A stretch of DNA of 38,379 nucleotides, from contig CAVIUL010000001.1 of the NCBI GenBank assembly GCA_963645885.1, forward strand, positions 22,265-60,643, read 5' to 3'. This DNA comes from a bacterium. Its GTDB lineage: Bacteria > Bacillota_I > Bacilli_A > RF39 > UBA660. Below are positions 3,001 to 38,257 of the stretch, in pieces. The number at the start of each line of letters is the position of its first letter. The stretch's first letter is position 1. The translations under genes were made by a program, and so were the position numbers. Under the pieces are notes generated by a model. The model did not search any database. It had not been told where the DNA came from and saw only the letters and a program-made list of their open reading frames with translations.

Positions 3001-3675
3001 GATATTCTTTATGATACTAATTATATTGATTAGAATAAAGAAGTACATAGACCTATAGAAGGTAAATTAGATTCAGATGGAAAACAAGTATACGATAAAT
3101 CTACTATATTCCCTCTCTATTATTCAAGAGAAGATACTTTTAATGAAATTGAAGATTCTTATAAAGAAATGACAGCAGCTAACAAAGATTATGAATCTTT
3201 AGCTGGAGCTGAAATTGTTAAATATAATAATCTACAAGAATATCGTATTTGGAATCATGCTAAAGCTGCTGATATTACAAAAGTGGGAAGAATGTAGGGT
3301 AATATGCAATATAAAGAGGATAAATGGGATGTTCAAATTAATCCAATTAATATTGTAGAACGTAACGAAAAAGAATGGGGAACAGAAGATAGTACAGGAG
3401 GAACAGATTTAAATCCTAATAAAATACCTATTGTTTTATAGACTAATAGTATTCCTTCTGAGGTTTGTGATAAAATTCAAAGAGAAGGTACTGATATTCC
3501 TAAAAATTCTGAGGATAGAGCTATATATTCATGGGAGGTTGCAGGATTTAACGATTCTTCTAATAGTTCTGTCAAAGTAAAAGATAAATGGGTAAAGATT
3601 AGGATAAGATACTCTGGTGAAAAATTAGCAATTATCACTGCAATACGAACATTTTATAGTGGAAGTTATTCATAA
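1..3675 (+). CDS. Large virion/tail-associated structural protein, 5' partial (>=1,224 aa), TAG-recoded
   Basis: Frame 1 is open from base 1 to TAA at 3673-3675, apart from 13 in-frame TAGs. ORF-track fragments 478-1206, 1210-1743 and 2320-2646 all lie in this frame. The position directly upstream of cargo-like genes suggests a tail or muzzle-type protein, but I recognised no diagnostic motif. Confidence 0.8.
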
Positions 3676-7650: not shown

Positions 7651-7683
7651 TACATAATATTAACAATTTAATTATATATAATT

Positions 7684-8046
7684 ATGAATATTACTTATAA
7701 AAACGCAGTAAAAAACGTAAAGAAATTTCAACAAGGTGGCCCAATGGGTCCAGAAGGTGCTCCTGCAGAAGGTGCTCCAGAAGGAGGTGAAATGCCAGCA
7801 GAGGGCGCACCTGAAGGTGGTGCTCCAGAAGGTGCTCCAGAAGGCGGTGGTGAGGATCCAATTGCTCAGTTAGTGCAAATCTTCGCACAAGGACTTCAAA
7901 ATCAAGATTGTCAGATGCTTGCACAGGGTGCACAAATGTTTATGGAACTCGCTCAACAAATGCAGGGCGGTGGTGGTCAACCAGCACCAGAAGGTCAGCC
8001 TGTATTTAGAAAGGGTGGTAAACTTGCATACAGAATTAAATATTAA
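7684..8046 (+). CDS. Small acidic PEGA-repeat / Gln-Met-rich protein (120 aa), TAG-free, function unknown
   Basis: This is an intact ATG-to-TAA ORF in the standard code. It is visibly GC-richer than its flanks. All 15 Gln codons are CAA or CAG, and 5 are CAG, which is rare elsewhere in the window. A promoter lies upstream and a terminator downstream. Confidence 0.85.
   Translation: MNITYKNAVKNVKKFQQGGPMGPEGAPAEGAPEGGEMPAEGAPEGGAPEGAPEGGGEDPIAQLVQIFAQGLQNQDCQMLAQGAQMFMELAQQMQGGGGQPAPEGQPVFRKGGKLAYRIKY
7750..7851 (+). repeat. Imperfect in-frame repeats of ccagaaggtgctcc-type units encoding (P/A)EG(A/G) repeats
   Basis: Read directly: PEGAPAEGAPEGGEMPAEGAPEGGAPEGAPEGGG. Confidence 0.7.
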
Positions 8047-16000: not shown

Positions 16001-19000
16001 GTTTATGTAGATAGAATGAAATCTATTGATCCTACAATGTCTGAAGAAGAAAGAAAACAAGAATAGGCATAGATAGGTCTTGACTATTCGAATAAACAAG
16101 CAGAAATTATTCTTAATAATCTCTCTAAATTTATTCAACCTTTTATTGATAGCGGGACAATTAATACTGAAACAAAAAATCAACTATTAAAAACATTAGA
16201 ATAGCTTAAACAAATATCAATCAATAAGACAAATGAAGCTACGATGTATGATGCTTCTGAAGAAGAGCAAGATTAGTTGGCAGAAAAAACTGTATAGGTT
16301 CAAAATGCTATTGATGAAATATCAAAATTAGGTAATACTTCTTTTGAAAAGAATTTGAATGAATTTTCTATTGCTATAGGTAATGAACCTATTAATATGA
16401 CACAATTACTTGAAAGATTAAATACCTCTTTCAATGATGTGTCTAATAATATCACTAGGTTTAATATGGATGAGCAATTGTATAAAGATTTAGACAATGC
16501 TATTCATACTATTGAAATGTATCAAGCTGCAATAAAAGGAGCTAGAACAGATAATGCAGGAACTGGAAATTATTTCGGATATAATGCTACTTTAAATGAG
16601 ATAGCTAAGAAATCTGAAGGAGATTTTCCTGAACTTGCAGAAATTGATAAGCTTTCTGCAGATGTATTTATTGCAGATATTAATACTAATTTAAGTAAAC
16701 TTTTATTTTTAAAATAGTTATATCAAATAAACCAAGGTCAAAAGATGACCAGATAGGATAGAGTTGCTGAAAGAAAAGATATTTTATTCTATAGAAGAAT
16801 GAAAAGTATTGTTTCTGTTCCTGATGATGATCCACTAAAATCATGGGAAGGATTTCTTGAATTAAAAAATACTATAGAAGCAGCAACCCTTCATGAAAAT
16901 TTTAGAGACTCTGAAATTATTCAAGAAAAAGATAAAGAGGCTTTTGAGAAAGAAAACATACTTATTGAAGATGCTATATATGACTTTTTCTAGAAAAATT
17001 AGGAAAAAATAAAAGATTCCACTAAGTTATCTGAATTTATAAACGGACGTCATTTGAATCTTTATACAGAAGCTAAATAGATTCTGAATGAAGGTACTGA
17101 TGTTATGGATGATAACTCTATGTTATGGTGGATAGCAAGCCGTTGTGCAGTAAAATCTTCAGCATTTCATAATAGATATTCTTAGATAATTAGTGATAAA
17201 ATAGCACCTATTGCTACTCAAGAATTAGCAGTTTATAATAACTATGCAAATATAGTAAATGGTAATGTTTTTACAGCTTTTGCAAAGGCTTTTAGAGAGT
17301 CTATGGTAAAAGATTGGAAAAGTAAATCTGTAGAAGAAAGAAAGAGAATTTTAACAAGTTTAAATAACTCTGAGGCTTTAGCAGATGATAAATTTGTAGA
17401 TTATGCTTTAAACTTTTTACCTGTTCCTAGATTTGCTAATGTAGTATTAACCGAAGGAATTGCAGGCAGTGGTAAAACTTCTAGTGTATTTACATAGACA
17501 GTTACAATGCTTAAAAAGTTTAATCCTGACGTTTTAAAAAATGTTGCGATTGTACATGGAGCCTCTAAATCAAGTGCTGAAGAAATTCAATCATTATTAG
17601 AAATAGAAAATTCTAAAAGCTACGATAGAGCAGGCTGGATGAAAGAAATTTCTAGTCAATGGAAAGAATATTTAATTGATCCAAAAACTAACAAACATCT
17701 AATAGAAAAATCTGCATATACATTTAGTTCTGAAAATGAAATTCGATCAGCATTAAATATTAATCAAACAGACACACCTCCAAGTCTTATTATTATTGAT
17801 GAAATCTCCAAATTCTCTACTTATGATGTAGATTTAATTAATGATTTTGCTAAAAAATATGGAATTACTGTCTTAGTAGCAGGAGATTTTGATCAATCTG
17901 GAGTTGTAGGATAGCATCCTATTGCAGTAAATGGAGAAACATTAAATTGGCTTCCTGAATTACAAAGAACAAACTTTATTAGGTCTCCTAAATTAGGAGT
18001 ATCTATGAGAACTGATAATTCTCTTAAAACACGAAATCAACAAAAGGTTCAAGCTTATATGCAAAATCACACTTCTGAAGATTTAATATAGCTTGAATGG
18101 TTTCAAGACGAAACTGGTTTATATGGAGATAGAGTCATTAGTTATGAATTTAATGACCCTGATGTTAATGTTAACGATTTAAGAAATCAAAAAGGAAAGG
18201 TTGTTGATAGTGTTATAGGACAAGTTGATAAATTAATTTAGACTTTAAAGCCAGGAGAAAAAATAGGTTATATATTTAATGACAAATCATCTCCTATTTA
18301 TCAAAAATTAGCATCTGATGAATATAAAAATTTTATAGATTTAAAAGAAGGTGGATCTGCTCAAGGATTAGAAAGTAGATATTATGTTATTGAAGCTGAT
18401 CCCACAATTGGACTTTCTAGTTCAGATAATATGGGCTAGAAAATGGCTGAAGATAACTATTTAAAAGAAATTTATACTGGAATCACTCGAGCATAGCAGG
18501 GAAGTATTTTAATTATGCCAACAGACATGGGACCTAAAATAGGTACTGTTTAGGTTAAATCTAAAATTAATGAAATTATTAATCCTGCAATAATTAAAAG
18601 TTATTCTATCAAAAGAAAAAATCTTTTAGAAAAAATTACTACTTCTTAGGATATTGAATATGTTCCTCGAGACAAAGAGGCATTAGATACCAAAAAACCT
18701 TCTGGAGAATCTAAAACTGGTTTAGATGAAGGAGTTACTTTACCTCCTCTACCTGATAATGAAGATACTACAAAAAAATCAGCTACAGTAAAACCTGATA
18801 GTACACCTGATGCAATTACACCTCCAGAAACAGTAGATTTTGAAACTCTTCCTTCTGGAGATTAGGAAGAATTATCAAAAATTCAAGAAAATGTAATTAA
18901 GAATCCTAAAACCGAAGAACCCTGGGATACTAATGATACTAAATCTTTAATTCCTTATGGATAGATTGTTTCGGTACAAGGTGAATATGGTGTTATAAAA

Positions 19001-22000
19001 GGAATTCAAACGAAATCTGATGGAAATCATAAATATTTAATTGAGACAAAAGAAGGTGAAAAGGAAATAAACTATAAAGATATAACTCAACTTATATCTA
19101 ATGCTAAAATAGAATCACCTGTAGTTTTAGATCACTAGGAAATGGTTAATAGATATGGAGAAATTGCAAATGTTGAATCCATAACTGTTAATCATAATGG
19201 TATTGAACTTACACTACCTTTATGTCAAATACCTTTCAAATATAAGAAAGAAACTGGAACTAATAATATGATCAACTATTTGCATAGAAATATTGTAGTA
19301 GTTAAAATTGGTAATGTTCACATTCCTTTCTATATGAGTACTGGTAGAGGTGGTAAAGAAAATGTACAACCTGGATTATGGTATCCTTTCTTTGGAATAA
19401 AAGATGGATGGTTAAATAAAGGTACTCAAGAAGATATTAATAATTTTTATGGAAGTCCTATTCTTAAAATTGTATCGGAACAATTAAATAATGTATTAGG
19501 AACAGGATATACTGATGATATAAAAGGTCCTTTAACATTTGAAGAAAATGTTGATTCTATTCAAATTTAGTATATAAATTAGGATTTAAATCCAACTGCT
19601 AATGGACACTCTGATACACTTTAGAAATTTAATGATAACGTAAAATAGACTATTGAAGCTATTGATAAATCTTTATCTGAAATTATTCCTGACATATCAG
19701 GAACTGAAGCTCCAAAATTGAGTTATGAAGACGATACTGCTCCTATTAATTTCAACAGCGATACTCTTGATGATAAAACTTATCAAGATATGGTTGATAA
19801 AGAAAATGAACCAACAGCTTTACCTGGATCTCAAGCAGTAAATGAGGGGTCTAAAATTGCAATTACTATGTTATTACATTCATTTAATACTTTTGAAACA
19901 GGTGTTTTATGGGATGAAGAAGGAAATCCAGTTCCTGTTGGAGATTAGACATGGGCAGATGCACGTATTGATAGTGTTAATGGATTATTAAAATTAGATA
20001 GGTTTAAAGGAAAGAAAAAAGAATATTATTTAAATGCATTAGGTTTACTAAGAAGTCATTTATTTAATACTGAAGATAAAGCCGAATTAGTTAAAAAACT
20101 AGAAAAAGTTTTGGGTATAGACGGCATTTATCTTACTTTTGCTTTAAAGAGTTCACCTAGACCTGGAGAAGGTAATAAATCCAAAGGAAAAGAATTTGTA
20201 GAAGAGTAGCCAAGTCGTTTTAGTAAAGGTATTAGTGAGACTACAGAATTTAATGGTTCATCTGATTCAAGATCTCATGAATGGCATCCTAAATCTCTTG
20301 TTGCAATTATTGGCACAAATGCTGATGGTGATGTTTTAGAACTTCCACTTTTAGCAACATCTTCACCATTTACTTTATTACAATTAGAAAATGATTAGAA
20401 ACAAAAAGTATTCCCTGATGTTTTAAGTACATTTGAAAGTTTAAAGAGTAATGGAATGGGATATTATGATATTGCTAATAAAATAATATCCAAATTTGAA
20501 AATGTTAACGAATACAAAGATTTAATAGACTTATTTAAATTATTTGTACGTACAGACAGAAATATAGAATATTTAAGAGATCCTAACTGGACTATTGCTC
20601 GTAATTTAAATTTACAAGGTGCAATTTTTGCTAAAGATAGAGGTAAACTTATGGGAGTTCCTGGATTTGATTATGATGCAGATAGTACTCCTGAATCTGA
20701 ATGGAGCACATTAGATTCATTATATGCAGATCCTCAAAGATATGTAACAGAATAGATTTTTTCTTCTGTAAATGATACAACTACTACTGTAAACGGTAAT
20801 GAAATTCAATTCTCTAAACCTGGACATGCATTTGTATTAGCGTCTTATGATAGAAGTTTAAGTACTGACGAGGAAGTTGTAGAATACTTTACCAAACAAT
20901 GTAAAGATCCTAGTTTACCTAAGAAAGTTACTCAAGTATATATTGTTCCACCAAAAGCATCTTTAGAAGAATATATTGAAAATTTACGCAAAATTCTTGA
21001 TAAAAATGAACATGGAGCATTGCCTATTGGTCAATTCTTTACTTCATATAAGTTACTATAGGTTCTTTTAACAAATGATTCATTTAAAGAAATATTAAAT
21101 AAAAGAGTTCCAGGTTTATTACAAAAAACTCAAGATGCAATAAATTATATAAAAGAAGCTTTTGATGCAGCATAGCAAGCTACTTCTCTTAGTGAAAAAG
21201 CAAAATTAATGGGAGAAGTTAGGCAAAGATTATTTGAAGCTCAAGATTGGTCTAGTATAATTGGAGGAACAGCTAAACCTGTTAAGTTGGCTGGATTATT
21301 AGATGGAGTAATATTAAATTTCATCTATACAAAAAGTTCACTTCAATCATTAATTACTGGTGATTATGGAGTTTCTTTTGAATTTGATCAAGATAATTTT
21401 AATCTATTTAAAGGTATTTTAACACAAGCAGGTATTGATGGAGTTAGACATAATATAAAGATTCCAAAGAATGCACCTCGTGTAGGACCTTTTGTAGTAG
21501 TTTCAACTAATTATTCTCTAAATGGAAAACCATTTAGAGTTCATAATAAATTAGATTCATATACTTTTTCAGGAGATATGTCTAGTCTTATTCATAGTTA
21601 TGTTGATGCTTTGCGTCCATCTAAGCCAGATAAAGATGGAACAATACATTATGCAGGAGCTGATACATATAGATATTTAAAAGGAAAATCTAATATAAAT
21701 AATTCTGTTAAATCTAAAGATGATATTGATAGAGATAATCTTGAAAAAACATTCAAAAAGAAAGGATTAGATATTAATCAAATCTTAACAAACGCAGGAT
21801 TAATAGACATATATTAGAATCAACCAGTAGAAGATTCTATGAATAGAATTATAAATACAATTAACTAGACTATTCCTAATAGAATTGCATTCAAAGTTGG
21901 AGGAGATTTAATTATAAGTGATCCTGTAGAAGAACTTGGTAATTAGACTTTCTTAATTGACTCAAACGACAATCCTATTACAGATTTAGAACCATTATTT

Positions 22001-22480
22001 GATAATTTTGGAGTAGCTAATTTTAAAATAAGAGTTAATGATGTTGAATATTTATCAAGTTATAATAAATCTACTGGGACTATTAGAATGACACCTCCTG
22101 GAGAATATCATGAAAATGCAGCAACTGCAGTTAAATTATCTATTACAGAACAAAACTTTAACGAGTATATTGCTGATGGTAAAGAAGCTCTTTTTGAATG
22201 GATTGATGAAAACGGATAGTATTACGATTGGGAGATAGAAGACCTTTTTAACTCAACATCACTTGAGGAAATGCAAGAAGTTATTAGTCAAATGACTAAA
22301 TTAGACGATGATGCATTCTTAGATTTAGAAAAATATACAGAAAGTGATGAGTTTAAACAACTTGATGATAGAAAGAAATAGATTGTAAAAGAAATAAACG
22401 AATTAGAACGAGCTATTCGAGATAGAAATTATGATGAAAATCAAGAAACTTGTAAAATTGATATAACTTTTAAAGTATGA
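13049..22480 (+). CDS. Giant protein (3,143 aa) with N-terminal hydrophobic/TM-like segments and an internal SF1 (RecD/Dda/Pif1-like) helicase domain
   Basis: The ATG at 13049 lies 2 nt after the upstream TAA. Frame 2 is open for 9.4 kb to TGA at 22478-22480. I checked every gap between track ORFs and found 52 in-frame TAGs and no TAA or TGA. The hydrophobic run is LALVGSMFIPYVGPWIAGLSVATQLAGLGATLG (about 13850-13950). Confidence 0.85.
17456..18493 (+). other. SF1 helicase core motifs inside the 3,143-aa protein
   Basis: Motifs read in order: Walker A GIAGSGKT (17456-17479); Walker B/motif II LIIIDEIS; motif III VLVAGDFDQSG; motif V-like GGSAQGLESRYYVI; motif VI YTGITRA (TGITRA at 18476-18493). 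They are collinear across 5 TAG-separated ORF fragments. Confidence 0.7.
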
Positions 22481-25400
22481 ATAAATGTGAATTAAATAAT
22501 TCATCATTACTTTAGATTAAAGATTTAACAGCCCAACTTCTTAAACGTGGAGTGAAAGAACGTTGGGATGTTAACTCTTTAAAATCTAATTTTAATGAAT
22601 TTATCAAATAGGTATTAGACACCTATAAAATGTCTAATAATGATGATATAAAATTAGTTGCAGACATTATGTATACTCAAATACCTAGAGCTAAAAGAAT
22701 AGTAGCTTTAGATCCTGAGTATTTATCTATGAATAATGTAATTAACTTATTAGATGAAGCTGTATAGGGTGTTGAAAAAATAGATACCAAATCTGCAAGC
22801 ATAGAAAAAATAGAAGAAGGTCCTCAAAATAGATTACAAGCTTCAGACATCTTTTTAGATAAAGCTTATGGAGGAGCTGTTAATGTACGAAACATTTTCT
22901 GTAAACAAATAGATCAAAATTTATTTGATTGCATGTTTATTAATAGAGGATCTATCAATACTAAATTAGGAATTGTAGGAAAAACATGTGATTTAAATAA
23001 TAACATTAGAGAATATCAAGACTTTTTGTTGCAAAAAATCGTCGAGTATCTAAATACAGATGTATTAGATATGAGAGTTCAAGGAGAAGTAAAAAATATT
23101 CTTACAAATCCTAGAATGTATAATAGAGGGAAATATACTAAAGCTTTAGATATTTTATCCCCTTATATTAATACCTATTTAAAATCTTTAGAAGGACAAA
23201 CTGATCAATTACGTCAACTGTTTAAAAATAGATTAAAAGATCCAAAATCTAAAAGAAGACTTGATGCATTTAATGCAATGGTCATTCTAAATAATTTTGA
23301 TAGTTATGTTTCTAATATGCTAGGCAAAGCTATTCAAATAAAAGACTTTGGATTATTTACAGGAGAAGATAAATATCAAATTTCTGACTAGACTGCTAAT
23401 GTATATACAACTTGGAGAACTTCAGAAAATATTAATATTGCAAATGAAGCAGATGCTATTACAAAATTAGCAGTAAATACAACTCCTTTGTTAAATTGGA
23501 ATAACGATACTCCGTCAGATGGAAAATATTTAAAATTCCAAGATTTTCAACATATTATTTCTAAAATAAAAGATTTAACATATAATCCAGCAGCTTCTTC
23601 TATAATTTTTGATGATAATTTTGAATTAAGTCGCTCTGATATTTGGGATAGTTTATCAAAAGAAACTTAGGAATATTTAAAAGGTAAATCTCTTAGAGCT
23701 GCTATTAGTTTGGTTAGAAGTAATCCTAGAGCTTATCTTCATTCAGTTTTTGAAATCTTAAGTAATAATAAATTTAAAAAATTAAATCCTCAATTATATT
23801 CTAAGTTCTATAATGATGAATTAAATAAATTATATTCTATTTCACAAGGATTATTTAATGGAAATTATAGTTTAAGGACCTTAACTGATGTTAAAAGTCC
23901 TAATGATTTTTATTCTTATTTAACTTAGACAGCTGATTCTATATTTAATGTATAGTATTTACAATACTATAGAGATGATAATGGGTTAATAAAAAGTCGT
24001 ACCTTATTAGACCAAGGTGTAAATAATGTAAGAAGATCTATTGAACAAGCTATAAACCTAACAAATAGTTATAGGTTAATCGGCGATTGGAAGAAATATT
24101 CTGAACCTTTTAATTTTTAGGAAAAATATAATAAAGATAATTCTGCATTAACTGAATTATCTTTTAATATTCCAAACACTGATTTTAGAGCTACTGTAGA
24201 TTCTACTGGTAAGGTAAGAATAACTAAAAACGGTTTCGGAATTAACTATTCTGAAAGTTATGAAGAATTAAAGCCTTTTATAGATAATATTCTAAAATTA
24301 AATTTAGAAGAAGATACCGTTTTTGAAGAAGCTATATTTGAAGAATTAGGAGATTCTACAGTTTAGGATTTGTCTGCATTTGCAACAAGAGTTATTTTTA
24401 ATTAGTATGTTAATTAGAAATTTTTATTAGATGTATCCCCATAGAATAGAGATATTATTTTATCTTCTATTTATGGAAAGACTATTCCTAATTGGAATTA
24501 TGCAATTGATGAATTAGGATTGATTCATAAATCAGATTTATCAATATTACATAAAATATCTGTTGCTAAAAGTAATGTGCAAGGTTTAATGACATCTACT
24601 CAAGTAAAAGATTCTCAAGGAAAAGCATAGAGTAGACAAACTTTAAGTAGATTATTAGGTTCTTTTAATTCTCAATATGAATTATAGGAAAGATTACCAG
24701 ATTCAATATCAAATCATTTTATGATATTGAATACACCTGGATTATTTGAAGGAGTCTATACAGTAAAAGAATTTGCTGGTGAAAATGTAGATTCCAAAGA
24801 AACTACAAGTATGACAGTACGAGAAATGGCATTATCTCAATTTATGTATGATTATATAGGAGGAATAATGCCGCAAGATGAGAATAATTTAGTTGGTAAT
24901 GGACATATTATGTTATTACCTTCTGTAAACTCTGATAAAAGTACTATAGGAAGAATTAAAATTAATCTAAATTCTAAAATTAATATTAATGGAGAATAGA
25001 AAGCTCTAAAAGATTTAACAACTATTGAATTAGAACAAGTAATAGATAAAGAATTTGGAGATTTCTATGAAAAAATGGTATTTAAAATCCAAAAAGATTG
25101 GAGAACTTTATAGGATTTTATAGGACCTAATCTTGGTATGCCTAGATTAGATTTAGATTTTTTAAATAATTTTTCTGAGTTTAATACTTGGTATGCTAAT
25201 AATAGAAAAGAAAGCGATCCAAAAAGAGTAGATGACTTTATTAAAAAGAAAGTTTTAGAATATAATAAAGTTCATAGACTTTCTCCTTTAGAATTAATAG
25301 ATCAAGTTCATTTCAAATCTAATAAAAATGGAAACCTTTCTATAAACGAAGCAATACTTGCACAAATAGCTCGGTTTAAACCATCATCTTCTATATTTAA

Positions 25401-28400
25401 TAATAATCAACTTCTATTATACAGATACCGTAAAAAAGAAGATTTTTGGATTGAAAAAAAGTCAGAAGTATTGAAAAGTTTGCTTTCTAGTAAGACTAAT
25501 TTCAATACAAGTAATACTGTATAGGCTGAATGTAATTATTTACGAGATTGGAATAGAAAACAGGTATCTTCTGGAAACCCTAATTGGATTAATTCTTCAG
25601 GAAACTTAATTCTCGCTAAAATTATTATTAATCAAGATACACCAGATGAGCGTATAGTTGATATAACTTCACAAAAAGACTTTGTAAAATTAGGAATTTC
25701 AAATTATCATGAGTTTATTACAAGTCACGCAGCTGATATTCAATTAAATCCTTTAATTGAAAAATATAATGCACTTGATTATTTATTTACTCAAGAGTTT
25801 ATGAATACCACAGTAGGCTCTTTTGTAGCCCATCCTAATAAAACAGGGTCACAAGATGTTATTGAACAAGAAGCTGGACATTTCCAAGCTCAGCATAAGC
25901 GTAATGTATCTATGACTGCAGCAATGCATGAATTTTAGCTTAATTTGTTATCAGGAATTCCCGAAACTTATAATTTAGCTGTAATTGATGATATTCATGA
26001 TGAACAAGGCACAATTACAGGGTTAATAAATGGAATCAAACCTTTTGATGGTGCTACATTTGTAAATCCCTTTGTTGTTCTTCTCGAAAATTATTCTTTA
26101 TGTGGAGCTAAAGCTGGTATTAGTAAAAAATAGTTTGTTCATTTTAAAAACGAAAAAACTGGTACAGGTGGTATCATTAAAACTGCAGGATTTGGATTAA
26201 CTAATGATTGGATTAGAAATTCTCCGTTTTTACAAAAAATGATGAGAAAAATGACAAACCATGTTTGGCTTAATGAAGATGGATCTTCTGCACATGTAGA
26301 TATTACCAAAGATTATTCAGGAAACAAAATAGAATATAAAAATATTTATTATAAATAGAATGGAAAGTATTATAGAATTACCGATATAACTTATAATGGA
26401 AATAATACATATACTTATAATTTATAGGAAGTTGATGCAAAAGGTAATTTTATACAATATATGAAACCGTCTCAAGGTAGAAGATTTGTTTCAGAATAGA
26501 TTGATACTAATTATAAATTATGGAATTTCTTTGGTGGTGCGTGGTCTATGGAATTAAAAAATGGAAAACTAGTTCCGTCTAATACATCTGTAGAAAACGT
26601 AGTTACTGCAATGAACAATACTAAATCTGAAGAAACTGTATTAAACAAAACACCTAAAACTCAATCAGATTTATGGCAGCCTCTTAAAATGGTTGATGTT
26701 CATTATCTTGCAACAGCGGGTGCTGTAAAACAAGGTGCTGCTAATATTAATTCATCAAGCAAATATACAGATGAAGAAGATTATGATATTTAGAAAATTC
26801 ATATGTATCAAGCAGGAATCCAGCTTGATAAAGAACATCATGCTGATGAAGCAGAACTTTCTTTAATGACTCAGGTTATATCTGCTTGTGCCGCAAAAGG
26901 ATATACATTTGAAGCCGCAGCAACACTTTATGATGCTTTAGCAAAAGCAACTAGATCTAAAACCTCAGATCATTTAAAAGCTGTAGAAAATTTATTTAAC
27001 GCAGATACTCCTGAAAATAAAGCAGCTCTTAGAGAGGTTTTAGTAAAATCTATCGTAAAAGTATTATCTACAAGTAATAGTAATAATTTTGCTGTAAAAT
27101 TGTCAAAAGAATTAGAGCAACAAGCAAAAAATGGAAAAGAAATAAAATATTCTGAACAATTATTGCCACTTTCTGATAATAATATTCACGCAAAAGTTCT
27201 AAGTGCTATAACTTCATATTTATCAAAAACTGGTATTAAACAAAAAATTCCAGGTGTATTATCAGTGCTTACACCTTCTTATAATATAAATAAGATATAT
27301 GCTGGTAAAAAGTATGAAGCTTATGAAAATCCAGATGAAGAACTAGAACAAATACAAACAAAATAGGTACCTGTTTATGATAGCAGTTTTAAATATCGTA
27401 AAGGATCTAATAGTTTCAGAGGTTTAACTTTAAATTTTGTTGAACCTAATAGTTTAATTTCTGAAATAGATGGATAGCCCGTAGCTGCTAGAAATAATGG
27501 AGATGGAATTGTTTCTCTAGATGAAGCTTTACTTAAATAGAAATTTGAAGATAGAGCTTGGAAATACTCTAGAAATTCAAGAGCTCTTGATTAGGATTTT
27601 GAAACTTATGAAGATTGGCTTAACTTTGTATTACTTCATGAATCAATGCATGATGAATATAAAAAAGAGGAAGGAGAATCTTAGTTTGATTATGAGTCTC
27701 GCGTTAATGACGAAGCATTAAAACGTCTAAATAGTTCTATTAACAATATTGAACTTGGTAGAGAATATTATATTACTGAAAATGTTCAAATTGATCGTGA
27801 GATGATGGATGAAGCTGGAAATATTATAACAGTTTCTGAAATACAAGCAATAACTGGTAAACCTAGATTAATAAGAACTCCTCTTGAATATTATCAATTA
27901 AAATAGGATATTGCTACAGGAAAAGTTTCAAAAGTTGTTGAATGTGTAAAAAACGGTAGAGACCTTGCAGGTTTTAATGTACGATTCAAAACTGATAAAG
28001 GATATTTTTAGTTATGGGATTTAGATTCTTCTCACTGTTTATTTAATTTGAATGAAATATCTGAAGGTCTTAAAAAAGGGAAATTAACTCAAGAAGAAGC
28101 AATTGAGGAGCTTCGAAAAACATTCTAGAGATTCTATCCAAGATTTAATGAGTTAGGAATAAATATAACTTTTGATAATTTTCCAAATTTATTTAAACAA
28201 TTAAAAAGATATTCACATAAAAAATTACAACAAGATTTAGCTAATTTATCAAAAGAAGAGCCTAATGTTTTAGAATAGTTTTAGAAATTAGTTAAATCTA
28301 AGCAAGATACTCCAGAATGGTATTCTCGATTTGCATCTTGGATAAATGTTAAACTTGGATTAAGAAATGGTGAATACATACAATTGGGAAATGGAACTAA

Positions 28401-31400
28401 AGTAAAAGTTACTAGGGATAATTATAATCAAGTGGGAGCTTATGTATTATAGTTATTCAAAGATATGTCAAAAGTTAGAATTAATGGAGAACTTCATAAA
28501 ATTGATAAAGAATCTATTAAAACATAGCCTTATGAAGTAATAATGCCTAAAACTTTTGCTACAGCTTTCGGATTAAATGAATTTGATTCATTAGAAGAAA
28601 TTGCAAAAGATCCAGAATTCTTCTTAAAACAATATATTAAAAATCAAGCTTCTAAAGTAGCTTAGAATTAGTATTCTGTTGAATTTAAAAGGTCTACAGG
28701 ATAGCATATATATGTACTAAACAAATCTCAAGTACCTGGTTCAGGATTACATAAATTAGAAGGAGTTTTAACTGAAGTTGAAGATGGAGTTACTACAAGA
28801 TTAGATTCAATGAATCAACCTATGTATGAACTTTCTCCTGATTCTGAAATTTACATAGATGATTAGGGAAATGAAGTAATTGTAAGTGATGATATTGAAT
28901 TTTATACCAATTCATTATTTTATGATTCTATAAAAATTTCAGAGAATTTAAGAAATAATTCATAGGTATTAAGATCCCTTCCTGAAATATTTAGAAATTC
29001 TTCAAACAAAACAGCTAATGCGTTTGGGAAATTTTTAAGGTCTTATGGAGATTCTAATATAATTATGGGAAGTGATGATTGGAATGATATAGACCAAAAT
29101 CACCCTATAGTAAAATTAATGCATGAAAAACATTCTTCTTTCTTAAGAGCATTAGATATTGTTGCTGCTCGTATTCCTGCACAATCTATGCAATCATACA
29201 TGCCTATGAAAGTTGTAGCTTTTGATAACCCAAATATTAATACTGCATATGTATCTACATATCAAATTTTACTTCAAGGTTCCGACTATGATATAGATGC
29301 AGTTTCTTTAGCTACTTTTGACATAGACTCTAATGGAATGTATTAGCTTTGGTCTCCATATGCTAATATTTCAGATATTGAAAAATTACATGCTTCAGAA
29401 CTACTACCAATTCCAACAGGTTTAGAAACAGAAATTAAGAGTACAAACGATATAGCAGAAGCAATTAAGATTTTTGATGAATATCAAGATTTAATATCTA
29501 TTACTCCTAGACAAACTTACAATAAAGAGTCTAAACTTCCAGAAATTGATCCAAATAAAGTAAATGTAGATTTAAATTTGGATACAGCTGAACAAATAAA
29601 GATGTTAGGTGATTTATTAAATGAATAGTTATTGTCAATAGATCCTGTGTATGCTCCGCAATTTATTAAAAAATTTAATAAATTAGGAGGATTTTAGGTA
29701 TCTAATATAGAACAAATTAATGACATTTTATCTCAATTAAAATCAATCATAGATAAACATAATTTTTATTTTGATAAAGTTTCTGAGAAGAAACTCAATC
29801 ATATCATTAATAATAGAACTATACTTTCTATGTATAATAGTATTAATAATCCTGTTAATTTAACTTAGGCTCATATGTCAGTGGATAATACAACAGGCCC
29901 ATTAAAAGATGTTGCTGAAAATGGATCTCCTGAAATTATATATGAATCAAAACATAGAACTCCTGGAAATTTTGTTAATAAATGTGAAAGTATTAATGAA
30001 AACCAAGTTGGTAAAACAGGTATTGCTATTTGTGCTACTGGATTAAAAGGATTTTTTGCATTAACTCAATATAATAACTATTTATTAAACAAAGGAACTT
30101 CAGAAGAATAGAACAAACTTCTATTTAATGTATCAATAGGTAATAATATATATAGAACTTTAGCAAATATAAGAGCTTTAGATCCCAATACCATTACTAA
30201 TAACACAGTGTTAAAATGTTTAGCTCAAACAGATAATGATGAAGATGCTGCACTGGTTTTATCTGCATTACTATCATTAGCTACTGATAATGCCAAAGAA
30301 TTAGCTCTTTCTAAATTAAATGCAGGAACTAAAACATTAGGTATGTATGTTTATGGAATAGCTATAGGTATGGACTTTAAGGATATTGCCAGACTCCTTA
30401 TGTCAAAAACAGGTAAAACTATAGTAGATATTTCTGAAAGTGATGTATTTGATCAAACAGACGGATATATTACTATAAAATCCGCTTTTGGATATTTCGA
30501 ATAGTTACCTAATAAATATTTAAATAAATATAATATTAGAAAAAATCCAAATGGAACTTCAATAAAATCCCCATTAGAATTTTTTGAAGATTAGATAAGA
30601 AAATTACCTGATGATTTTTATTTTGAAGATGATGGTCGAGAAATGCCATTAAATGTAGTTCTAAGTAATTTTGCTAAAAGAAATTGGGATTTATCGGATA
30701 AATTATAGATATTAGAATCATTAAGAAATAGATACAATACATCTGCTTATGGATCAGAAGTTTATGAGCAATTAATAGACTTTTTAGAAGATTATGTTAT
30801 TGGATCTTTTGAAGTTAATGAAGACTATGAAACATATCAATAGTTAAAAACATTAGCTGAAGGAGCAGATGAAATGAAGACATTAGGTCAAATATTAGGT
30901 TTAAATGGAGGAATTGCTACTGACTATGAAGGATTAACTAAACAAATAGATAGAATTGAAGAAGTTATTTATAAACAGTCTCATGATTTAGAGGATATTA
31001 TAGATTTATCTAAATTTGTTTTTGATTCTGAATATCGTCAGGAATGTATTGAAAAATACGAGACATTTAAACATACATTTAATATTCTTGACTGTTTAGC
31101 TAAAGTTCCACATTTTTTTGAATATGTAAAATAGCTTGCAGTTGCTCAAGAAGAGATAAAACAATCCTATAAATATAGAAGTGTTAAAAGTTTAGCTCGC
31201 AATGTAAGTGATGTAATTGGGTGGAGTAACAAAGGAAAAATTTCTAAAGGATTACAAAATTATATAGGTGACAAAATCAGAAATGACTGGATGCTTGATA
31301 GTGAAATAATAATGGATATGCCTTCTGGAATTAAAGCATTTGACAGAAATGGTGATAGTGATACTTTAACTGAAAGTAAACCTATAAGATTAGGAACTGA

Positions 31401-32409
31401 TTGGGGTAATGCTACATTTAGAATATTTATGGAAACTCAAGTTATTCCTGATTTAAAAAAAGGTATTATTCGTCCAGGAACTAGTGTAGGATCCATTAAA
31501 ACTAATAAGTTTATAAAGGATTTAACCCCTGACTTATTTACTAAAACAGTATCTTCTAATCCTACTATATTATATACTTTACCTATTAATATGTTACCTA
31601 GAACAGATGTTGAATAGTCTTTACTAGATTCTTATATTGGTGAGTTTAATGAATTAGCAGGATATACATACGATTATAATGTTATTAAACGAGATGTTGA
31701 TGGAAATGAACAAATTATACAACAATCAATTCCTATTAAAGATTTGTTTATTTACTATTCAATGATAGCACATAATTGGAAATTAGGAGAAAATTCATTA
31801 GTTCCTATTTTAGAAAATTTTTAGGATACTGGTTTAATTGATGCATTTCATAAATATGAGGCATCTTTAGATAATAGTGGGGAAACTCTTACTGAATACA
31901 ACATAAATGAAATTCTTCCATACGTTGTTCCAAGAATGAGTCCTTATTCTGCTTACACAAAATATATAAAAGCGAAAAATCCTTCTAGTAAAAAGATTGA
32001 AATAATGAAAAGAACAGTATCTGATACACAAACTGATAATAATGAGATGTATGAAGGAAATGAAATGTATGAGGATATTATATATGGAATGATTGATTCT
32101 AATAAAATAGGCAATTATGAATTTATACAAAACAATCTTGATACTAATTATTTCACATCTGGTATAATAGGAAGTACAGATAAAATTATAAAATCTGAAA
32201 TTATAGATAATAAGGGTGAATCCTTACAATTAGAAATACAGTATGATTCTGAAAATGATAGTATTAAACGAGTTGCTGTTGATAATGTTATGTATGATAT
32301 TAAAACATTATCTCATGCTCTATTTACTAAAATAGACGGAAGAAAAGTTCCAAATCTATCATTGATGAAAAGTATAATTAAAAATGAATTATATCCATGT
32401 CATGTATAA
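22477..32409 (+). CDS. Giant protein (3,310 aa): putative virion-packaged two-barrel RNA polymerase (crAss-like vRNAP)
   Basis: The ATG at 22477 overlaps the upstream TGA (ATGA). Frame 1 is open for 9.9 kb to TAA at 32407-32409. I checked all gaps and found 52 in-frame TAGs. It contains a beta-prime-like DPBB segment, AARIPAQSMQSYMPMKVVAF...LLQGSDYDIDAVSL. Confidence 0.85.
29284..29298 (+). other. DxDxD (DYDID) candidate catalytic metal-binding motif of the RNAP
   Basis: The codons gac tat gat ata gat give D-Y-D-I-D. The upstream R-x-P...hydrophobic strand resembles bacterial beta-prime (RAPTLHRLGIQAF...NADFDGDQMAVH) and the DxDxD motif reported for giant crAss-like phage proteins. Confidence 0.65.
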
Positions 32410-33455
32410 ATAAAAAATCTCCTGAGTACTAGGCTTTGAAAAATAAGTCTGGTATTCAGGAATTTATACTAGAAGCTATATGTAGAGATTTTGTTGATGA
32501 ACATCAGAGATTTCCGTATCTTGATGAACTTTCAGATGTTAATTCTGAACTTCATTTGAAAAAACGATTATCTATTAATTCTTATGGAACCTCTAATATT
32601 AGTACTATTTTAGAAAAAAGTAATGCTTCTGATTTAGAAGAAGCAGCAATCAATTTAAATAATGAATACAGAGATTTAGAAATAGATATTACTCCTATTC
32701 AAGAAACTGCTTTTATAGATATAGAACATAGACCTACAGATTCTAACTTCGAAACAAATCCAGTAACAGTGGATGAACATCCAAATAATTATGATATTTT
32801 TAATAATGCATTAATAAAATTAGCATCATTATATGGAATAAAATTTAATGCAATAACTAATGCTGAGTTAAATTCTGAAACTTGGAATAATGTTCCAGGA
32901 GTAATGGATGCTAATGCATTTATATTTAATGGAGAAATTTATATAAATTTAGATAAAAGTTCAGTAGATGCTCCTTTACATGAATTAATGCATTTATTAA
33001 TTGGGTCTATGAGATTTTCTGATCCTAATATTTATTAGCAATTAGTGGCATCTGTTGAAAATATTCCAGATTTTCAAAAACTAGCCCAAAATTATCAAGG
33101 AAGAACAGCAAATGATATAAAAGAAGAAATTTTTGTTACTGAAGTTGCAAAACATTTAACAGGTCAATCTTCTTTTATAGATAATTTAGATGCTAATATT
33201 CGTTATGAAATACTATATAATACAAGAAGATTATTAGACTCTATATTAATGGGACAAGATAGTGTAAGAACAATCTCTCCTAAAAGATTGTTTACAATGT
33301 CATTAAAAAATCTTACTAAAGAAGTTAATTCTGTAATAATGTCTAATAATTTTAAAGGGTATGTAAATTCTGAAGATTCTGAGTTACATAGAAGACTTAA
33401 TAATATTAAATCAGATTTATTAAAAAATAATCAACTAGAAGAATATTGTGAATAA
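32397..33455 (+). CDS. HExxH protein, putative zincin-like metallopeptidase (352 aa from ATG 32397; 339 aa if the TTG at 32436 is used)
   Basis: Frame 3 is open to TAA at 33453-33455. The ATG at 32397 overlaps the upstream gene by 13 nt and needs read-through of the TAG at 32430. A second in-frame TAG lies at 33036. The motif VDAPLHELMHLLIGS has HELMH at 32979-32993. Confidence 0.7.
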
Positions 33456-36400
33456 TGGCATGTATATATAAATATAAAGGACATACATTTAATTCTGAAT
33501 TAGAACTTGATGATTTTATTCTTGAAAAACTTCCGTTTGAGCCAACAATGGGCGATTTAGTCTTTAGTATGACCGAATAGCAACTAAATATATCTTCTCA
33601 ATTAAGTAAAATAGCTAAGGATTCTCATGAACTTGTAAGGAAATATCAAGAAATGTTAAACAACAACAAAGTTCTTTACAACGAGGATGGAGAAATGGCT
33701 TTAGAAGATCCTCCTTATATTGGAGTAAACAAGTTTCTTTCTGGATTAAAAAATGAATCAGGAGAATTATTATTTCCTGAATTTAGAGAAGAAGAATATT
33801 GGACACGACGATATGCTAATTGGAAAGTTGGACAATTCACAGATGCTGAAATAGAAGAATTTGAATTAGACAAAAATAACTTACCAAAAATTACAGAAGC
33901 TAGTGAACACAAGAGGCTAAGAGATTAGATGACTCATAAATGGGAAGTTCAAGCAAAAACTGGTTCTGCAATACATAATATTTTTCAAATTTGTTTTTAG
34001 AAAGAAAAGGGTGTTTATAATTTTTCTTTAGATGATGCACAATTAGAAAAAATAATTGAATCTAAATTAGAAGAAAAAAATAAACCTTATATAAAAGGAG
34101 ATATAGTTCAATAGGCAATTAAATATGCTAGAGAACTAAATGCAAAACTTACAGAAAAATTTGGAGAAGGATGTGCATATTATCCTGAATTTATGGTATC
34201 CCAAGATACAAATATTATTGAGAAAGGACATCCTACTAAATTAATGGGCATCATTGACCTTTTAATTGTAGATCCAACTGGTAAAGTACACATTTTAGAT
34301 TATAAGACTTCTATTCATGATTATCATGACTTTGTTCAAGCAAAAAAGAATTCTTATAGTTATCAATTAGGTACGTATCAAAGAATGTTACAAAAATATG
34401 GAGTACAAACATATCAAGGATAGTTAATGGTTGCTCCTATTCAAATTACTGATTTTAAAAAGGACGGAGATTCTTATACTTATTCAGGTATTACTACTTC
34501 TGAAACAATTACTGAAGTAGGTGTGCAATTAAATGCAGATAAAATGTGGGAGAACATTGATGAATTTATGCCTGCTCCTTTTAAGTTAAATATAACAACT
34601 TCTGAAGCTATTAAAACTACATCAGAAATGATGGCAAAATGGTTTCCTAATTATCGTTCTAATTATAAAATTAATCGCGAAGATTTGATTAAACGATTAA
34701 AGCAATAGAACAAATTAGAGAAAAATGAAAATGGACAGTATGTTTATACTAAATATGACTCTAAAGAAACTATTGTTGCTACAGAAGAAGGCGAATTTGT
34801 TGATAAAATTCTTAAATATGAACAAGGTTTACCAGCAAAACGATTGGAAGTTACAGCAAGAGTTAAAAATGCATTAACAGAAGCTATAAAGAACGGTATA
34901 GATAATGTGGATTTTCCTACTCCTACTACTATATCTTCTGATGGTTCTACAACCTGGTTAAAAGATACATTATCTCCATATTGTAATGGTCTTTGGGAAA
35001 TAGAAGATAATCATCTTCTGGAATCATTTGGAGTAATTATGTTAAAAACAAAAGATGGTATATCTCCAAAACAAATTGAGTTTGTTCGTGTTAGTACAAA
35101 TACATTACGAAGAGATCATAGAGCACATTTAGATAAAGAATCTAGAAAAAATGTATTTATGGAAAGAAAAGGATTACTTTCTAATTATGAAAATGATGTA
35201 ATTTAGAAGTCTAAATCTAATTCTTTAATGGTAGAAGGTGTTCAAGGTAATGTTGAACTTATAGAAACATTATTATTAATCAACCAAATGAAAGGTTTGG
35301 AAGGCTGTACAATTGGAAATGTTCAAGTAGTAAATCCAATTCAAGCAAACGGTATTTCTTTAACTAATGAAGAATTAATTTATTGTTGGAATGAATTAAA
35401 CAAACATGATAAAGTAAATTTTGACAATATTAAAAATGGTGATATAAAGTTTGCTAATAAATATGAAATAGCCAGAAATAAATTTGCAAATATCATGAGA
35501 TTAGGTGCAAAATGTGATTGGAAAGATAACTATCGTTTATTTGGAAAACTCAGAACATCTTTACCCGTACTAGATGAAAATATAAACGGAACAACTGAAG
35601 AAAAGATTTCAGCGTTAAAAGAACTTTTAAATAAAATTTCACAAAGTGATAATGCAAGAACTTTAGACAAAGTTTATTCAGAACAATCTGATTTAAAATC
35701 AGAAGCTGTAGATTTATATAACTCTATATTATAGGCTATAGCTCAATTAAAAGGAGTTAATTTCAGACAACAATTAAATGATCATGATAAATTTGTTGAA
35801 AGTCTTGCTATGTGGAAAAATGGATTATCAGGTACTTATATTGATAACCCTGGAAATATGGATAGTGAAACTCTTAATTTAGTAACAGGTTTAGTTACAG
35901 AGGCTTATCAAAATACTAGAGATGATATTCAAAGAGAAAAACCAAAAATTTATAAGTTGATAGAAAAACTTAAAAAGGAGAAAGGATTTAATGTAATTTC
36001 TGAAAATACTATAGGCAACTAGACATCTCTTTATTCTAATATGTTTTAGCCATATACAAAAGGAGGAGATTTTCTTTTTAAAAATCCGAATGATTTACAA
36101 GGTGCTGAAAAAGAATTTTTAACATATGCACTAGACAAAATAAATCGTAATCGTTATCCTGGAAAAACAGACGAAGAATATGAATATATGAAAAATTCAG
36201 GAAGTATTGATTATTATAGAGTACCTTTAGCTAAAGGTGGAGAGGATTCAATTGCTTCTACTAGAGGATTGTTAAGTGCGTTAAGAACTAAATTAAGTTA
36301 TTTAAATCCTAAAACAGCTTTCCAAAATGCTAGAGAAAAAGTAGAAGGAATATTTAATGCTGATGAAGATATTTCAAAGCAACAGCAAACAGAATTAATA

Positions 36401-38257
36401 TATAAAATGAATACAATGTTTGATGGAGGAGAAAATACTGAAAAACGTATTAAAAAGTTATAGGATAAAGGAGAAGACTTTTTTGAACATAACTTAGAAA
36501 CATTACTTTATAAACACATGTTTTCATACTCTGTAAAGAATAATATGGATGGAGTATTTCCTATGATTAAGGCTGCTATGGCTCATATTTGTACTTAGGG
36601 AGCTATGCAAAATCATAAGTTTAGTGAAGATATTCATTATTTAGATCGTTATATTAGAAATAAAATATATAACCAATCTATTATCGATCCTAAACTTCAA
36701 GATGTAGCAAAAAAATTAGGATTGTTAAAACAAGCCGCATCAAAATTAACTTTAGCATTTGCTCCAGTTCAAGCATTTTATCAACCTTTACAAGGACTTT
36801 GGACGGATATAAGTCTAATGATTCGTAAACCTGACGGTAAAGATTCATTTACATTTTCTCATTTCACAAAAGCTTTGAAAATGGTATACTCTGATTTGGG
36901 ACACTTTTCTGATTCTCCTACTATTTGTTCATCACTTAACGAAATTTATGGAATAAATGATATGGATATGAATACATATACTGAACGTATTAGTAATGCT
37001 AAAAAAGGTATATGGAATTTTGAAAATTTTATGTTTAAATTTGCATCTCGTCCTGACTTCTATAATCGTATGAGTATTTTCCTTTCACAAATGATGGGAG
37101 ATGGTTGTTTAGAAGCGCATACTTTAAAAGATGGAGAATTAATATACGATTGGAAAAAGGATAAAAGATTTGAAGCATTTGCAAATGGTAGAACTAGTGA
37201 CCCTAAGTATCATCAACAAAAAACATTATACTATACTATAGCATAGCAATTTGTAAATGAACATGCTAAAGTTAAATTATCTGACGGAAAAGTTACAGAT
37301 TTTAAATTAGATATGTCAAAGCCTATGCCTTTACCGAGAGCTTACACTAACAAACAAGCTGAAAGTATGAAATCTTTAGGAGACGATATATATGGTTACT
37401 ATTCGCATGAAAAGAAATCACTTATAATGTCTACTACATTAGGTAGTCTTTGGTTACAATTTAAAACATACTGGTCTGGTAAAAAGAATCAATACTTATA
37501 GTCTGGAGGAGTTCGATTAAGAGGTAATTGGGAACATTATGAAGAAAATGGTGAAAAATATTATTATCAAACTGATAAAAACGGTAACACTCTTTTCAAC
37601 GAACCTCCTAAAACTGAAAAAGAATTAAAAGAAATGGGACAAAAAGCAATATCCCCAGTAATGCAATGGAAAGGACAGTGGCAAGAAGGTATTATTTTAA
37701 CACTATCTGATTTAGCTAAAACTGCTTGGAATAATGGAGTTTTGTCTACCAATCCTAATAAATCATGGAATGCGTTAAAAACAGCTTGGAATGAAAAGTG
37801 GAATGCTCAAGATGAAAATCTTAGAACTGCTTATCAAAATAATATAAAATAGTTATTATATGATTTTAGTATGTTCTTAATAGGAGGATGTATCTTAGGA
37901 GCTTTATTAGGAGATTGGCTTGATGAATTAAAAGACGACAATAAGAAAAATAAAGACTTTGTTACAGGATTAGGAATAGCTGCAGCAAATGTAGCTGTAT
38001 TATCTGTAAAAAATTCATTTTTAGACTTTAATGCTATTGATTCTATAGGTGGTGCAGTTCAAACATGGACTCCTTTTTCATTTGATTGGACAACAGGAAC
38101 ATTAAAGAACGCATGGAAAGTAGCAACAGGTGATGAAGATTTCTGGGATGGAGTAATTAAAACATCTGGTGGATTAAGATAGATTAAACCTGCTTTAGAT
38201 GCAATAAAACCAGATATGTTTAGAACTAAGTCTGAAGGAGGAACATTTGGACAATAA
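33455..38257 (+). CDS. Large protein (1,600 aa): N-terminal PD-(D/E)xK (RecB/Cas4-like) nuclease domain, long unknown region, C-terminal hydrophobic helices
   Basis: The ATG at 33455 overlaps the upstream TAA (TAATG). Frame 2 is open to TAA at 38255-38257. I checked all gaps and found 16 in-frame TAGs. The C-terminal hydrophobic segments are FLIGGCILGALLGDWL and GLGIAAANVAVLSV (about 37870-38020). Confidence 0.85.
33929..34400 (+). other. PD-(D/E)xK nuclease motif set
   Basis: The motifs are GSAIHNIFQ (motif-I-like), GIIDLLIVDPTGKVHILDYKTS (D at 34256, D-Y-K at 34298-34306) and QLGTY (34364-34378). This is the classic RecB-family order G.iD...(h)hDYKT...QL..Y. Confidence 0.7.

Follow-up and report, generated by a model that had tools for sequence, protein, structure and literature searches.

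The 38,379-nt stretch of DNA analysed here (the window; positions 22,265 to 60,643 of contig CAVIUL010000001.1, GenBank assembly GCA_963645885.1) carries a giant open reading frame (ORF), ORF I (22477..32409, + strand), which very probably encodes an orthologue of the virion RNA polymerase (RNAP) with two barrels in one chain that is typified by gp66 of Cellulophaga phage phi14:2, in a crAss-like gut phage that uses TAG as a sense codon. A crAss-like two-barrel virion RNAP had been proposed in a preliminary description of this DNA, and the proposal is supported by BLAST and profile-profile (hhalign) similarity to gp66, by the gp66 structure (6VR4) as the top fold match, by I or V at position 4 of the catalytic motif and by gene order. 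ORF I is an unusually large and highly divergent copy of a known enzyme type and no new kind of system, because recoded, intron-rich phages of the Zeta group with a giant DxDxD protein have already been reported (PMC7886860). New here are a map of the polymerase core at residue level, links to gp66 seen directly in sequence and in fold, two intron sites within the catalytic motif, and an expanded inter-barrel region with insertion hot spots.

Reading frame and catalytic segment

The 3,310-aa frame at 22477-32409 given in the preliminary description is borne out, provided that TAG is read as Gln. Under the standard bacterial code (table 11), this interval contains 52 in-frame stops, all TAG and none TGA. 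With TAG read as a sense codon, the frame runs for 3,310 codons from an ATG that overlaps the TGA of ORF H (ATGA) to its only TAA, the terminator. Reading TAG as sense yields eleven contiguous ORFs over the whole + strand of the window, and neither TGA-as-sense nor TAA-as-sense reassignment yields this back-to-back pattern across the window. An identical 3,310-aa protein (P0001) is held in the public collection (NCBI, Logan). Homologous genes mostly have CAA, CAG or TAG at the TAG positions of ORF I, and in one relative (locus L003) TAG codes for the invariant Gln of the LLQGSD motif; TAG is therefore assigned to Gln. TAG accounts for 52 of the 156 Gln codons in ORF I (CAA 96, CAG 8), while TGA (ORF H) and TAA (ORF I and ORF J) are still in use as stops. 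No tRNA gene was found in the window with ARAGORN, so an amber suppressor would have to come from another part of the genome or from the host.

The C-terminal half of a β′-like barrel, including the catalytic loop, is placed at 29140..29331 (+ strand, aa 2222-2285; LDIVAARIPAQSMQSYMPMKVVAF...TAYVSTYQILLQGSDYDIDAVSLA) by invariant alignment columns, BLAST, hhalign and structure models. The segment quoted earlier at 29164-29310 is exact (aa 2230-2278, with DYDID at 29284-29298), and only the spacer between its two quoted pieces has to be corrected, from 19 to 15 aa. A DxDxD motif is readily produced by chance, as shuffled versions of ORF I contain 1.05 on average (P(>=1) = 0.62) and the real protein has two. 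DxDxD alone is thus not significant, and the signal comes from conservation and context. Conservation was assessed by aligning 32 full-length, non-redundant homologues that share 39-54% identity with ORF I. Each of the three Asp residues whose conservation the preliminary description had put at stake (D2270, D2272 and D2274) is invariant in 32/32 homologues, and so are R2232, P2234, Q2236, Q2239, S2240, M2242, M2244, Q2267, G2268 and S2269. At the other DxDxD, aa 2586, the first Asp is kept in 4/32 only. In the wider family, GSD(Y/F/L/M)D(I/V)D is found in 98/98 motif-bearing sequences, and position 4 is always I or V, the residues found there in all crAss-like RNAPs (10.1101/2020.03.07.982082).

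Further support comes from group I introns in relatives of ORF I, which itself has no intron. The first search set includes 24 sequences of the family, 2,130-2,380 aa in length, that stop at or just past LLQGS or LLQGSD(Y/F), and further split genes were found in the exhaustive search. These homologues were considered as a shorter protein class, which was rejected, as they are the first exons of intron-split genes. The break falls between GSDY and DIDAV at locus L002 (insert 16478-17675), and between GS and DYDIDAV, 6 nt upstream of the L002 site, at L003 (insert 16787-18070) and L004. Each insert is ~1.2-1.3 kb long, codes for a LAGLIDADG_2 protein and carries group I intron cores. The L003 intron matches the full Rfam model at 47.9 bits (E=9e-11; gathering score 50 bits), and at L002 a P7/J8-7 core (E=0.004) and a P4-P6 region (E=0.35) flank the endonuclease ORF. 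At the gathering threshold, Rfam gave nothing on the intron-containing loci, and the introns were seen only by sensitive search on the inserts. Homing elements typically occupy those parts of essential genes whose sequence is under the strongest constraint, and the presence of introns inside the DxDxD codons therefore provides independent support for these codons being functionally critical.

Likeness to gp66 and predicted fold

The gp66 sequence was taken from the phi14:2 genome record, where it is annotated as 'Catalytic RNA polymerase subunit'. The top BLAST alignment between ORF I and gp66 is the catalytic segment (2224-2284 vs 1314-1377, 31% identity, E=0.003), with RIP.Q...GSD(Y/F)DID common to both proteins. 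Comparison of the ORF I family with 24 gp66 relatives by hhalign gave four collinear blocks: the catalytic barrel (2224-2274 vs gp66 1314-1365, E=6e-5), a block at 2583-2652 (gp66 1591-1660, E=4.2e-6, probability 87%), a weak block at 1492-1623 (gp66 1136-1265, within the gp66 connector, E=0.002) and one at 1379-1421 (gp66 993-1068, E about 0.01). In gp66, the catalytic motif is 1361-DFDID-1365, each Asp of which is essential, the bridge helix spans 1529-1559 and the trigger loop spans 1598-1636 (10.1101/2020.03.07.982082). Because of this published position, the block at 2583-2652 (30223..30432, + strand; LSALLSLATDNAKELALSKLNAGTKT) spans the gp66 trigger loop, and we describe it as trigger-loop-like. 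A bridge-helix-like element lies at 29965..30087 (+ strand, aa 2497-2537), where a 41-residue helix is predicted (H517-557 of model 2, described below) with NQVGKTGIAICATGLKGFF; the gp66 bridge helix (1529-1559) has YAGGKSGVGITANMLVDHN. By eye, the ORF I motif GKTGIAICATGL / ENQVGKTGIAICATGL corresponds to gp66 GKSGVGITANML / YAGGKSGVGITANML. Both elements, the bridge-like helix by eye and the trigger-loop block by hhalign, are present downstream of the catalytic barrel.

Two structure models, model 1 (aa 1101-2300; predicted local distance difference test score (pLDDT) 77, predicted template modelling score (pTM) 0.69) and the AlphaFold model 2 (aa 1981-2720; pLDDT 75, pTM 0.65), were searched with Foldseek against the PDB. 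Among 350,542 chains, the first-ranked match of model 2 is 6vr4_A, the virion RNAP gp66 of phi14:2 (probability 1.00, E=2.5e-3, 567 columns), and ranks 2-50 are 49 RNAP complex entries, nearly all of them chain D or J (E 0.015-0.09), the usual label of β′ in RNAP entries. As judged from the predicted structure, the match to gp66 is specific but distant.

Around the motif, both models predict the order strand DIVAAR, strand YMPMKVVAFD, strand TAYV, helix TYQILL, loop GSDYDID and strand VSLA. The β′ barrel has the same order of elements, which we take to be VLLNR, GIQAFEPVLI, AIQLH, PLVCAAY, NADFDGD and QMAVH in Escherichia coli. The double-psi β-barrel-like fold around 29160-29320 on which the earlier proposal hinged is thus predicted, with 6VR4 as top PDB match and the element order of β′, at a low template modelling (TM) score and with a loop pLDDT <50. 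The N-terminal half of this β′-like barrel is placed at 28510..28641 (+ strand, aa 2012-2055), where QPYEVIMPKTFATAFGL resembles gp66 RPGQIFMSHVQIAKL and both models have a strand and a helix; Y2019, E2020, I2022 and K2025 are invariant in the 32-sequence alignment. By eye, the segment also resembles what we take to be GLPKKMALELF of E. coli β′. In a search of BFVD, model 1 matched uncharacterised viral proteins, one of them from 'CrAss-like virus sp. ctYsL76'. Its marginal matches to AR9 RNAP (E=1.8), a designed double-psi β-barrel and YbeY (E about 4) were not used as fold evidence.

These results bear on two other explanations of ORF I. It is very unlikely that ORF I is an inactive polymerase derivative, or an unrelated virion cargo or structural protein, with a coincidental or vestigial DxDxD. 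The chance occurrence of the motif about once per protein of such size and composition, the lack of a curated family match and the modest fold-search statistics would suit such a protein, but in all 32 homologues the three Asp and about ten residues beside them do not vary, the similarity to gp66 is collinear over the barrel and trigger-loop block with a by-eye match at the bridge helix, gp66 ranks top among 350,542 PDB chains and is followed by RNAP entries only, and introns home exactly to the DxDxD site. A giant virion RNAP of the N4 type, with a T7-like single-subunit polymerase in a ~3,500-aa protein, is effectively refuted: no T7-like polymerase family is found in ORF I with Pfam at E up to 1, the fold matches of model 2 are gp66 and multisubunit RNAP entries only, and motif and context are of the β′ type, so that the resemblance is one of size (~3,300-3,500 aa; N4 size as given in the accessible part of PMC13434306) and virion context.

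Like gp66, the likely virion RNAP encoded by ORF I has a GSD(F/Y)DID loop in which position 4 is I and which follows RIP.Q..SS; the two also share the collinear blocks and the gene neighbourhood. ORF I differs in its length (3,310 vs 2,180 aa, in agreement with the earlier remark that it exceeds the ~2,180-aa crAss-like enzyme) and in being TAG-recoded. Outside the few blocks, overall sequence similarity is undetectable, and PHROGs and a profile search of the PDB give no link. Cellular β′ shares the order of elements around the Asp loop and, through RNAP entries that are mostly chains D and J, fills fold ranks 2-50. ORF I differs from cellular β′ and β in being a single chain, in having I/V and not Gly at position 4 and in its very low TM-scores; no Pfam Rpb1 or Rpb2 domain is found in ORF I at E up to 1, and its motif is GSDYDID, not NADFDGD. 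QDE-1 of Neurospora crassa, which has Gly at motif position 4 (DYDGD), lies outside the top 50 fold matches of both models and has no detected sequence similarity. It is similar to ORF I in its DxDxD loop and, if the second barrel of ORF I is rightly placed, in carrying the two barrels on a single polypeptide (10.1101/2020.03.07.982082). The RNAPs of Thermus phage P23-45 and of AR9 and phiKZ are likewise highly divergent phage two-barrel enzymes; the P23-45 RNAP is embedded in a giant tape-measure-fused virion protein, according to the accessible part of 10.1101/2022.12.01.518664, and the AR9 RNAP is linked to ORF I by the marginal model 1 match mentioned above.

Candidate second barrel and variable insertions

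Outside the catalytic barrel, the densest invariant block is found at aa 1139-1250 (QAQHKRNVS...PFDGATFVNPF...G.K.G..KK.F.H.K...GGIIKTAGFG), and a further invariant block lies at aa 1396-1466. The β-like barrel is probably, if tentatively, to be placed here. Its candidate part 1 lies at 25954..26211 (+ strand, aa 1160-1245; YNLAVIDDI...PFDGATFVNPFVVLLEN...GAKAGISKKQFVHFK...GGIIKTAGFG), with G1210, G1214, K1217, K1218, F1220, H1222 and K1235 invariant, and its candidate part 2 at 26662..26874 (+ strand, aa 1396-1466; WQPLK...ATAGAVKQGAANIN...AGIQLDKEHHAD...MTQVISAC). In model 1, ATFV, the helix PFVVLLEN, the loop GAKAGISKK and the strand QFVHF form a strand-helix-loop-strand pattern, as at the Asp-loop barrel, and by eye the Lys-rich loop GAKAGISKK resembles what we take to be GDKxxxRHGNKG of β. 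Targeted hhalign linked the candidate to gp66 just by short collinear blocks, at gp66 917-925 and 1053-1068 (both E=0.015), and Foldseek of model 1, which contains the candidate, gave no significant RNAP match. The second barrel that the preliminary description had left to be located has therefore gained a candidate at aa ~1160-1245/1396-1466, and its placement stays tentative at block E-values of about 0.01-0.015. A β-like barrel at aa ~2000-2060, which would suit a 140-residue connector, was also considered and was rejected, as this segment matches the first half of the β′ barrel (IMPKTFATAFGL vs GLPKKMALELF).

Several observations weigh against the identification of ORF I as a gp66-type polymerase. 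Pfam, PHROGs and NCBIfam gave no meaningful match to full ORF I, and searching PDB sequences with the profile of the 32-sequence family (hmmsearch) returned noise only, without recovering gp66; the same was true of phmmer with aa 2001-3000. The alignment of model 2 with gp66 has a modest E-value, a TM-score of 0.23 and a root-mean-square deviation of 17.7 Å, and the catalytic loop has a pLDDT below 50 in this model. Model 1 matched nothing in the PDB at E<=0.001, and gp66 was outside its top 50. The β-like barrel is placed by short blocks at E about 0.015 and by visual comparison. If the placement is right, the Lys loop (1217) and the Asp loop (2270) are ~1,050 residues apart, compared with ~350 in gp66. 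The gp66 barrels are joined by a ~140-residue connector (10.1101/2020.03.07.982082), and ORF I does not conform to this spacing, given the uncertain position of its β-like barrel.

With the barrels so placed, the extra length of ORF I between them is internal, consisting of β-rich and helical modules, and is no terminal fusion. The inter-barrel sequence is ~700 residues longer than in gp66 and has hot spots whose inserts differ between phages: ORF I has an HExxH module, and other members have a cpYpsA/SLOG domain, a module of the P-loop type or unrelated inserts of 150-275 aa. ORF I shows in this way how far the gp66/QDE-1-type architecture can expand. In the mechanism that we propose for such an enzyme, D2270, D2272 and D2274, on the loop of the β′-like double-psi β-barrel, would bind Mg2+ for catalysis, and the facing β-like barrel would supply a Lys-rich loop, probably GAKAGISKK (aa 1210-1218). 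The core would be completed by the bridge-like helix (aa 2497-2537) together with an element at aa ~2590-2630 that is trigger-loop-like.

The family to which ORF I belongs is large. A word-indexed search recovered 186 relatives, none of which has a Pfam domain or a protein name, and an exhaustive HMMER search with aa 1981-2720 recovered 868 cluster representatives at E<=1e-3 (221 at E<=1e-30), mostly 3,000-5,000 aa long. Relatives of ORF I sit on contigs of up to 165-178 kb. Among 50,697 phage records, tblastn found just two unannotated gut-phage contigs, at 26-42% identity. Such polymerases escape curated profile libraries, and a residue-level map therefore helps to annotate hundreds of gut-phage genomes.

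Insertions vary between members of the family. In ORF I, a lineage-specific insert of ~112 aa (27385..27726, + strand, aa ~1637-1750) contains an HExxH motif (LLHESMHDEY; HExxH at aa 1721-1725). This insert is present in 7/32 non-redundant members, and HE(A/S)MH is kept in five. The site is an insertion hot spot, where most members join PVYD...NISNLELG directly and others in the family carry different inserts, including ones of 147 aa, ~200 aa and 223 aa. Other insertion points in the family follow aa 1125, 1774 and 1942. A cpYpsA SLOG domain (89.5 bits) in one relative (P0115) and a 181-aa P-loop module in another (P0083) occur at sites outside the hot spot. The HExxH module of ORF I is a candidate metallopeptidase-like domain: the insert has no Pfam or NCBIfam match, and its similarities are a weak BLAST alignment with the zincin region of phi14:2 gp65 (E=0.014) and a weak Foldseek resemblance to YbeY-type folds (E about 4). 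It is conceivable, though we regard it as doubtful, that in this lineage the injected polymerase serves as a carrier of interchangeable accessory modules, in which effector or self-processing domains would be delivered into the host as loops of the virion RNAP.

Gene neighbourhood and placement of the phage

The window is part of a virion and transcription block of Crassvirales. Its clearest taxonomic marker is ORF A (1..3675, + strand), whose 5′ end lies outside the window and whose product is a Crassvirus muzzle protein (Pfam crAss_MUZ 80 bits, cut-off 27; crAss_MUZ_C 30.4 bits; BLAST phi14:2 gp71 E=8e-10). Directly upstream of ORF I is ORF H (13049..22480, + strand), a 3,143-aa gp67-like giant protein (Pfam AAA_30 27.5 bits; BLAST phi14:2 gp67 E=2.7e-7, 106-aa match). 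Downstream, the end of the RNAP gene is overlapped by 13 nt by ORF J (32397..33455, + strand), which encodes a 352-aa protein with an HExxH motif (HELMH, about 32979-32993), and ORF J is followed by ORF K (33455..38257, + strand), whose 1,600-aa product has a PD-(D/E)XK nuclease domain (Pfam PDDEXK_1 47.6 bits, aa 165-339, about 33947-34471). Neighbouring genes overlap by 1-13 nt, with ATGA at the junction of ORF H and ORF I. The order of muzzle, gp67-like protein and RNAP, then HExxH and PDDEXK proteins, is that of phi14:2, and the downstream HExxH and PDDEXK proteins agree with published descriptions of crAss transcription blocks. Relatives have the same gene order, after which the coding strand changes and replication-type genes begin (uracil-DNA glycosylase, metallophosphatase).

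This setting suggests that ORF I would be expressed late, with TAG read as Gln, as one of a block of translationally coupled genes for giant virion proteins, downstream of the muzzle protein. The polymerase would then be packed into the particle and injected to start infection, transcribing the early genes; packaging, early-gene transcription and enzymatic activity are, together with the position of the second barrel, what we infer from the present evidence. That ORF I might instead be an unpackaged two-barrel RNAP for middle or late genes, like the non-virion RNAPs of phiKZ and AR9, is highly improbable. The marginal Foldseek match of model 1 (E=1.8) to the AR9 non-virion RNAP would speak for it, but the gene is located within the recoded virion block directly downstream of the muzzle, flanked by gp67-like and gp65-like genes that all correspond to virion proteins in phi14:2, and gp66, a virion enzyme, is its nearest relative in both structure and sequence.

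The neighbours of ORF I are also relevant to the question of processing. Orthologues of gp65 and gp67 are virion proteins that are sometimes fused with the RNAP in a polyprotein that is likely cleaved, and gp65 has a zincin-like protease domain (10.1101/2020.03.07.982082). One relative (P0082) is an in-frame fusion in which the polymerase continues, at its C-terminus, into a protein of the ORF J type (49% identity over 351 aa, E=4e-109). The zincin-bearing protein that follows gp66 in phi14:2, gp65, has HEIMH, where ORF J has HELMH; BLAST found no significant similarity of ORF J or ORF K to gp65, and library searches found no protease family match for ORF J. ORF I could accordingly be a polyprotein precursor of which a smaller proteolytic fragment is the active polymerase, cut perhaps by the internal HExxH module or by ORF J. 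This possibility, which overlaps with the gp66-type virion RNAP and is not its opposite, gains from the published fusions and the zincin-like domain of gp65, from the P0082 fusion and from the HExxH insert of ORF I with HE(A/S)MH kept in five relatives. We nevertheless consider it unlikely: the internal HExxH is not generally required, because 25/32 family members lack the insert; cleavage at the insert, which is located between the putative barrels, would split the catalytic core; and neither the insert nor ORF J matches a protease family.

Within Crassvirales, the phage most likely belongs to the large-genome Zeta group, a description that the window fits feature by feature. The TerL, MCP and portal genes, on which a phylogenetic placement would draw, lie outside the window. 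According to Yutin et al. 2021 (PMC7886860), the Zeta group has genomes of 145-192 kb with TAG or TGA reassigned, mostly in late genes, introns and inteins at a density without precedent, with LAGLIDADG drawn in the transcription block, and a transcription block of several large proteins, one of which has a β′-type DxDxD ('RNApB''). Echekviridae was proposed in 2025 as the family name for the group (PMC12386605). The likeness consists of TAG recoding across the window, an intein in ORF B, introns with a LAGLIDADG gene in the RNAP gene of relatives, a large PDDEXK neighbour, and the 165-178 kb contigs, which are those of relatives of ORF I. The accessible parts of the Zeta-group papers mark DxDxD and give no description of where the barrels lie, of the insertion hot spot or of the two sites occupied by introns.

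Other features of the neighbouring genes were recorded. In ORF H, a P-loop domain of the SF1/AAA_30 type covers aa 1465-1622 (about 17441-17914), and there are two chance-level DxDxD motifs, DYDAD and DIDRD. ORF K has a hydrophobic C-terminal region and is the last gene of the block. The ORF B intein (ORF B, 3675-6152; Pfam Intein_splicing 55.9 bits, aa 297-543, window about 4563-5303) begins near GMC/VCAGTKVF, ends near ...ITHN/T and interrupts a Gly/Ser/Ala-rich virion protein. ORF C (6137-7036) contains an Ala/Glu/Thr-rich repeat (AAERAAAERAATEAAATEAAATEAAATEA), ORF D (7021-7614) is a DUF192 protein (85 bits), and ORF E (7672-8046) has a low-complexity stretch rich in PEGA/PEGG.

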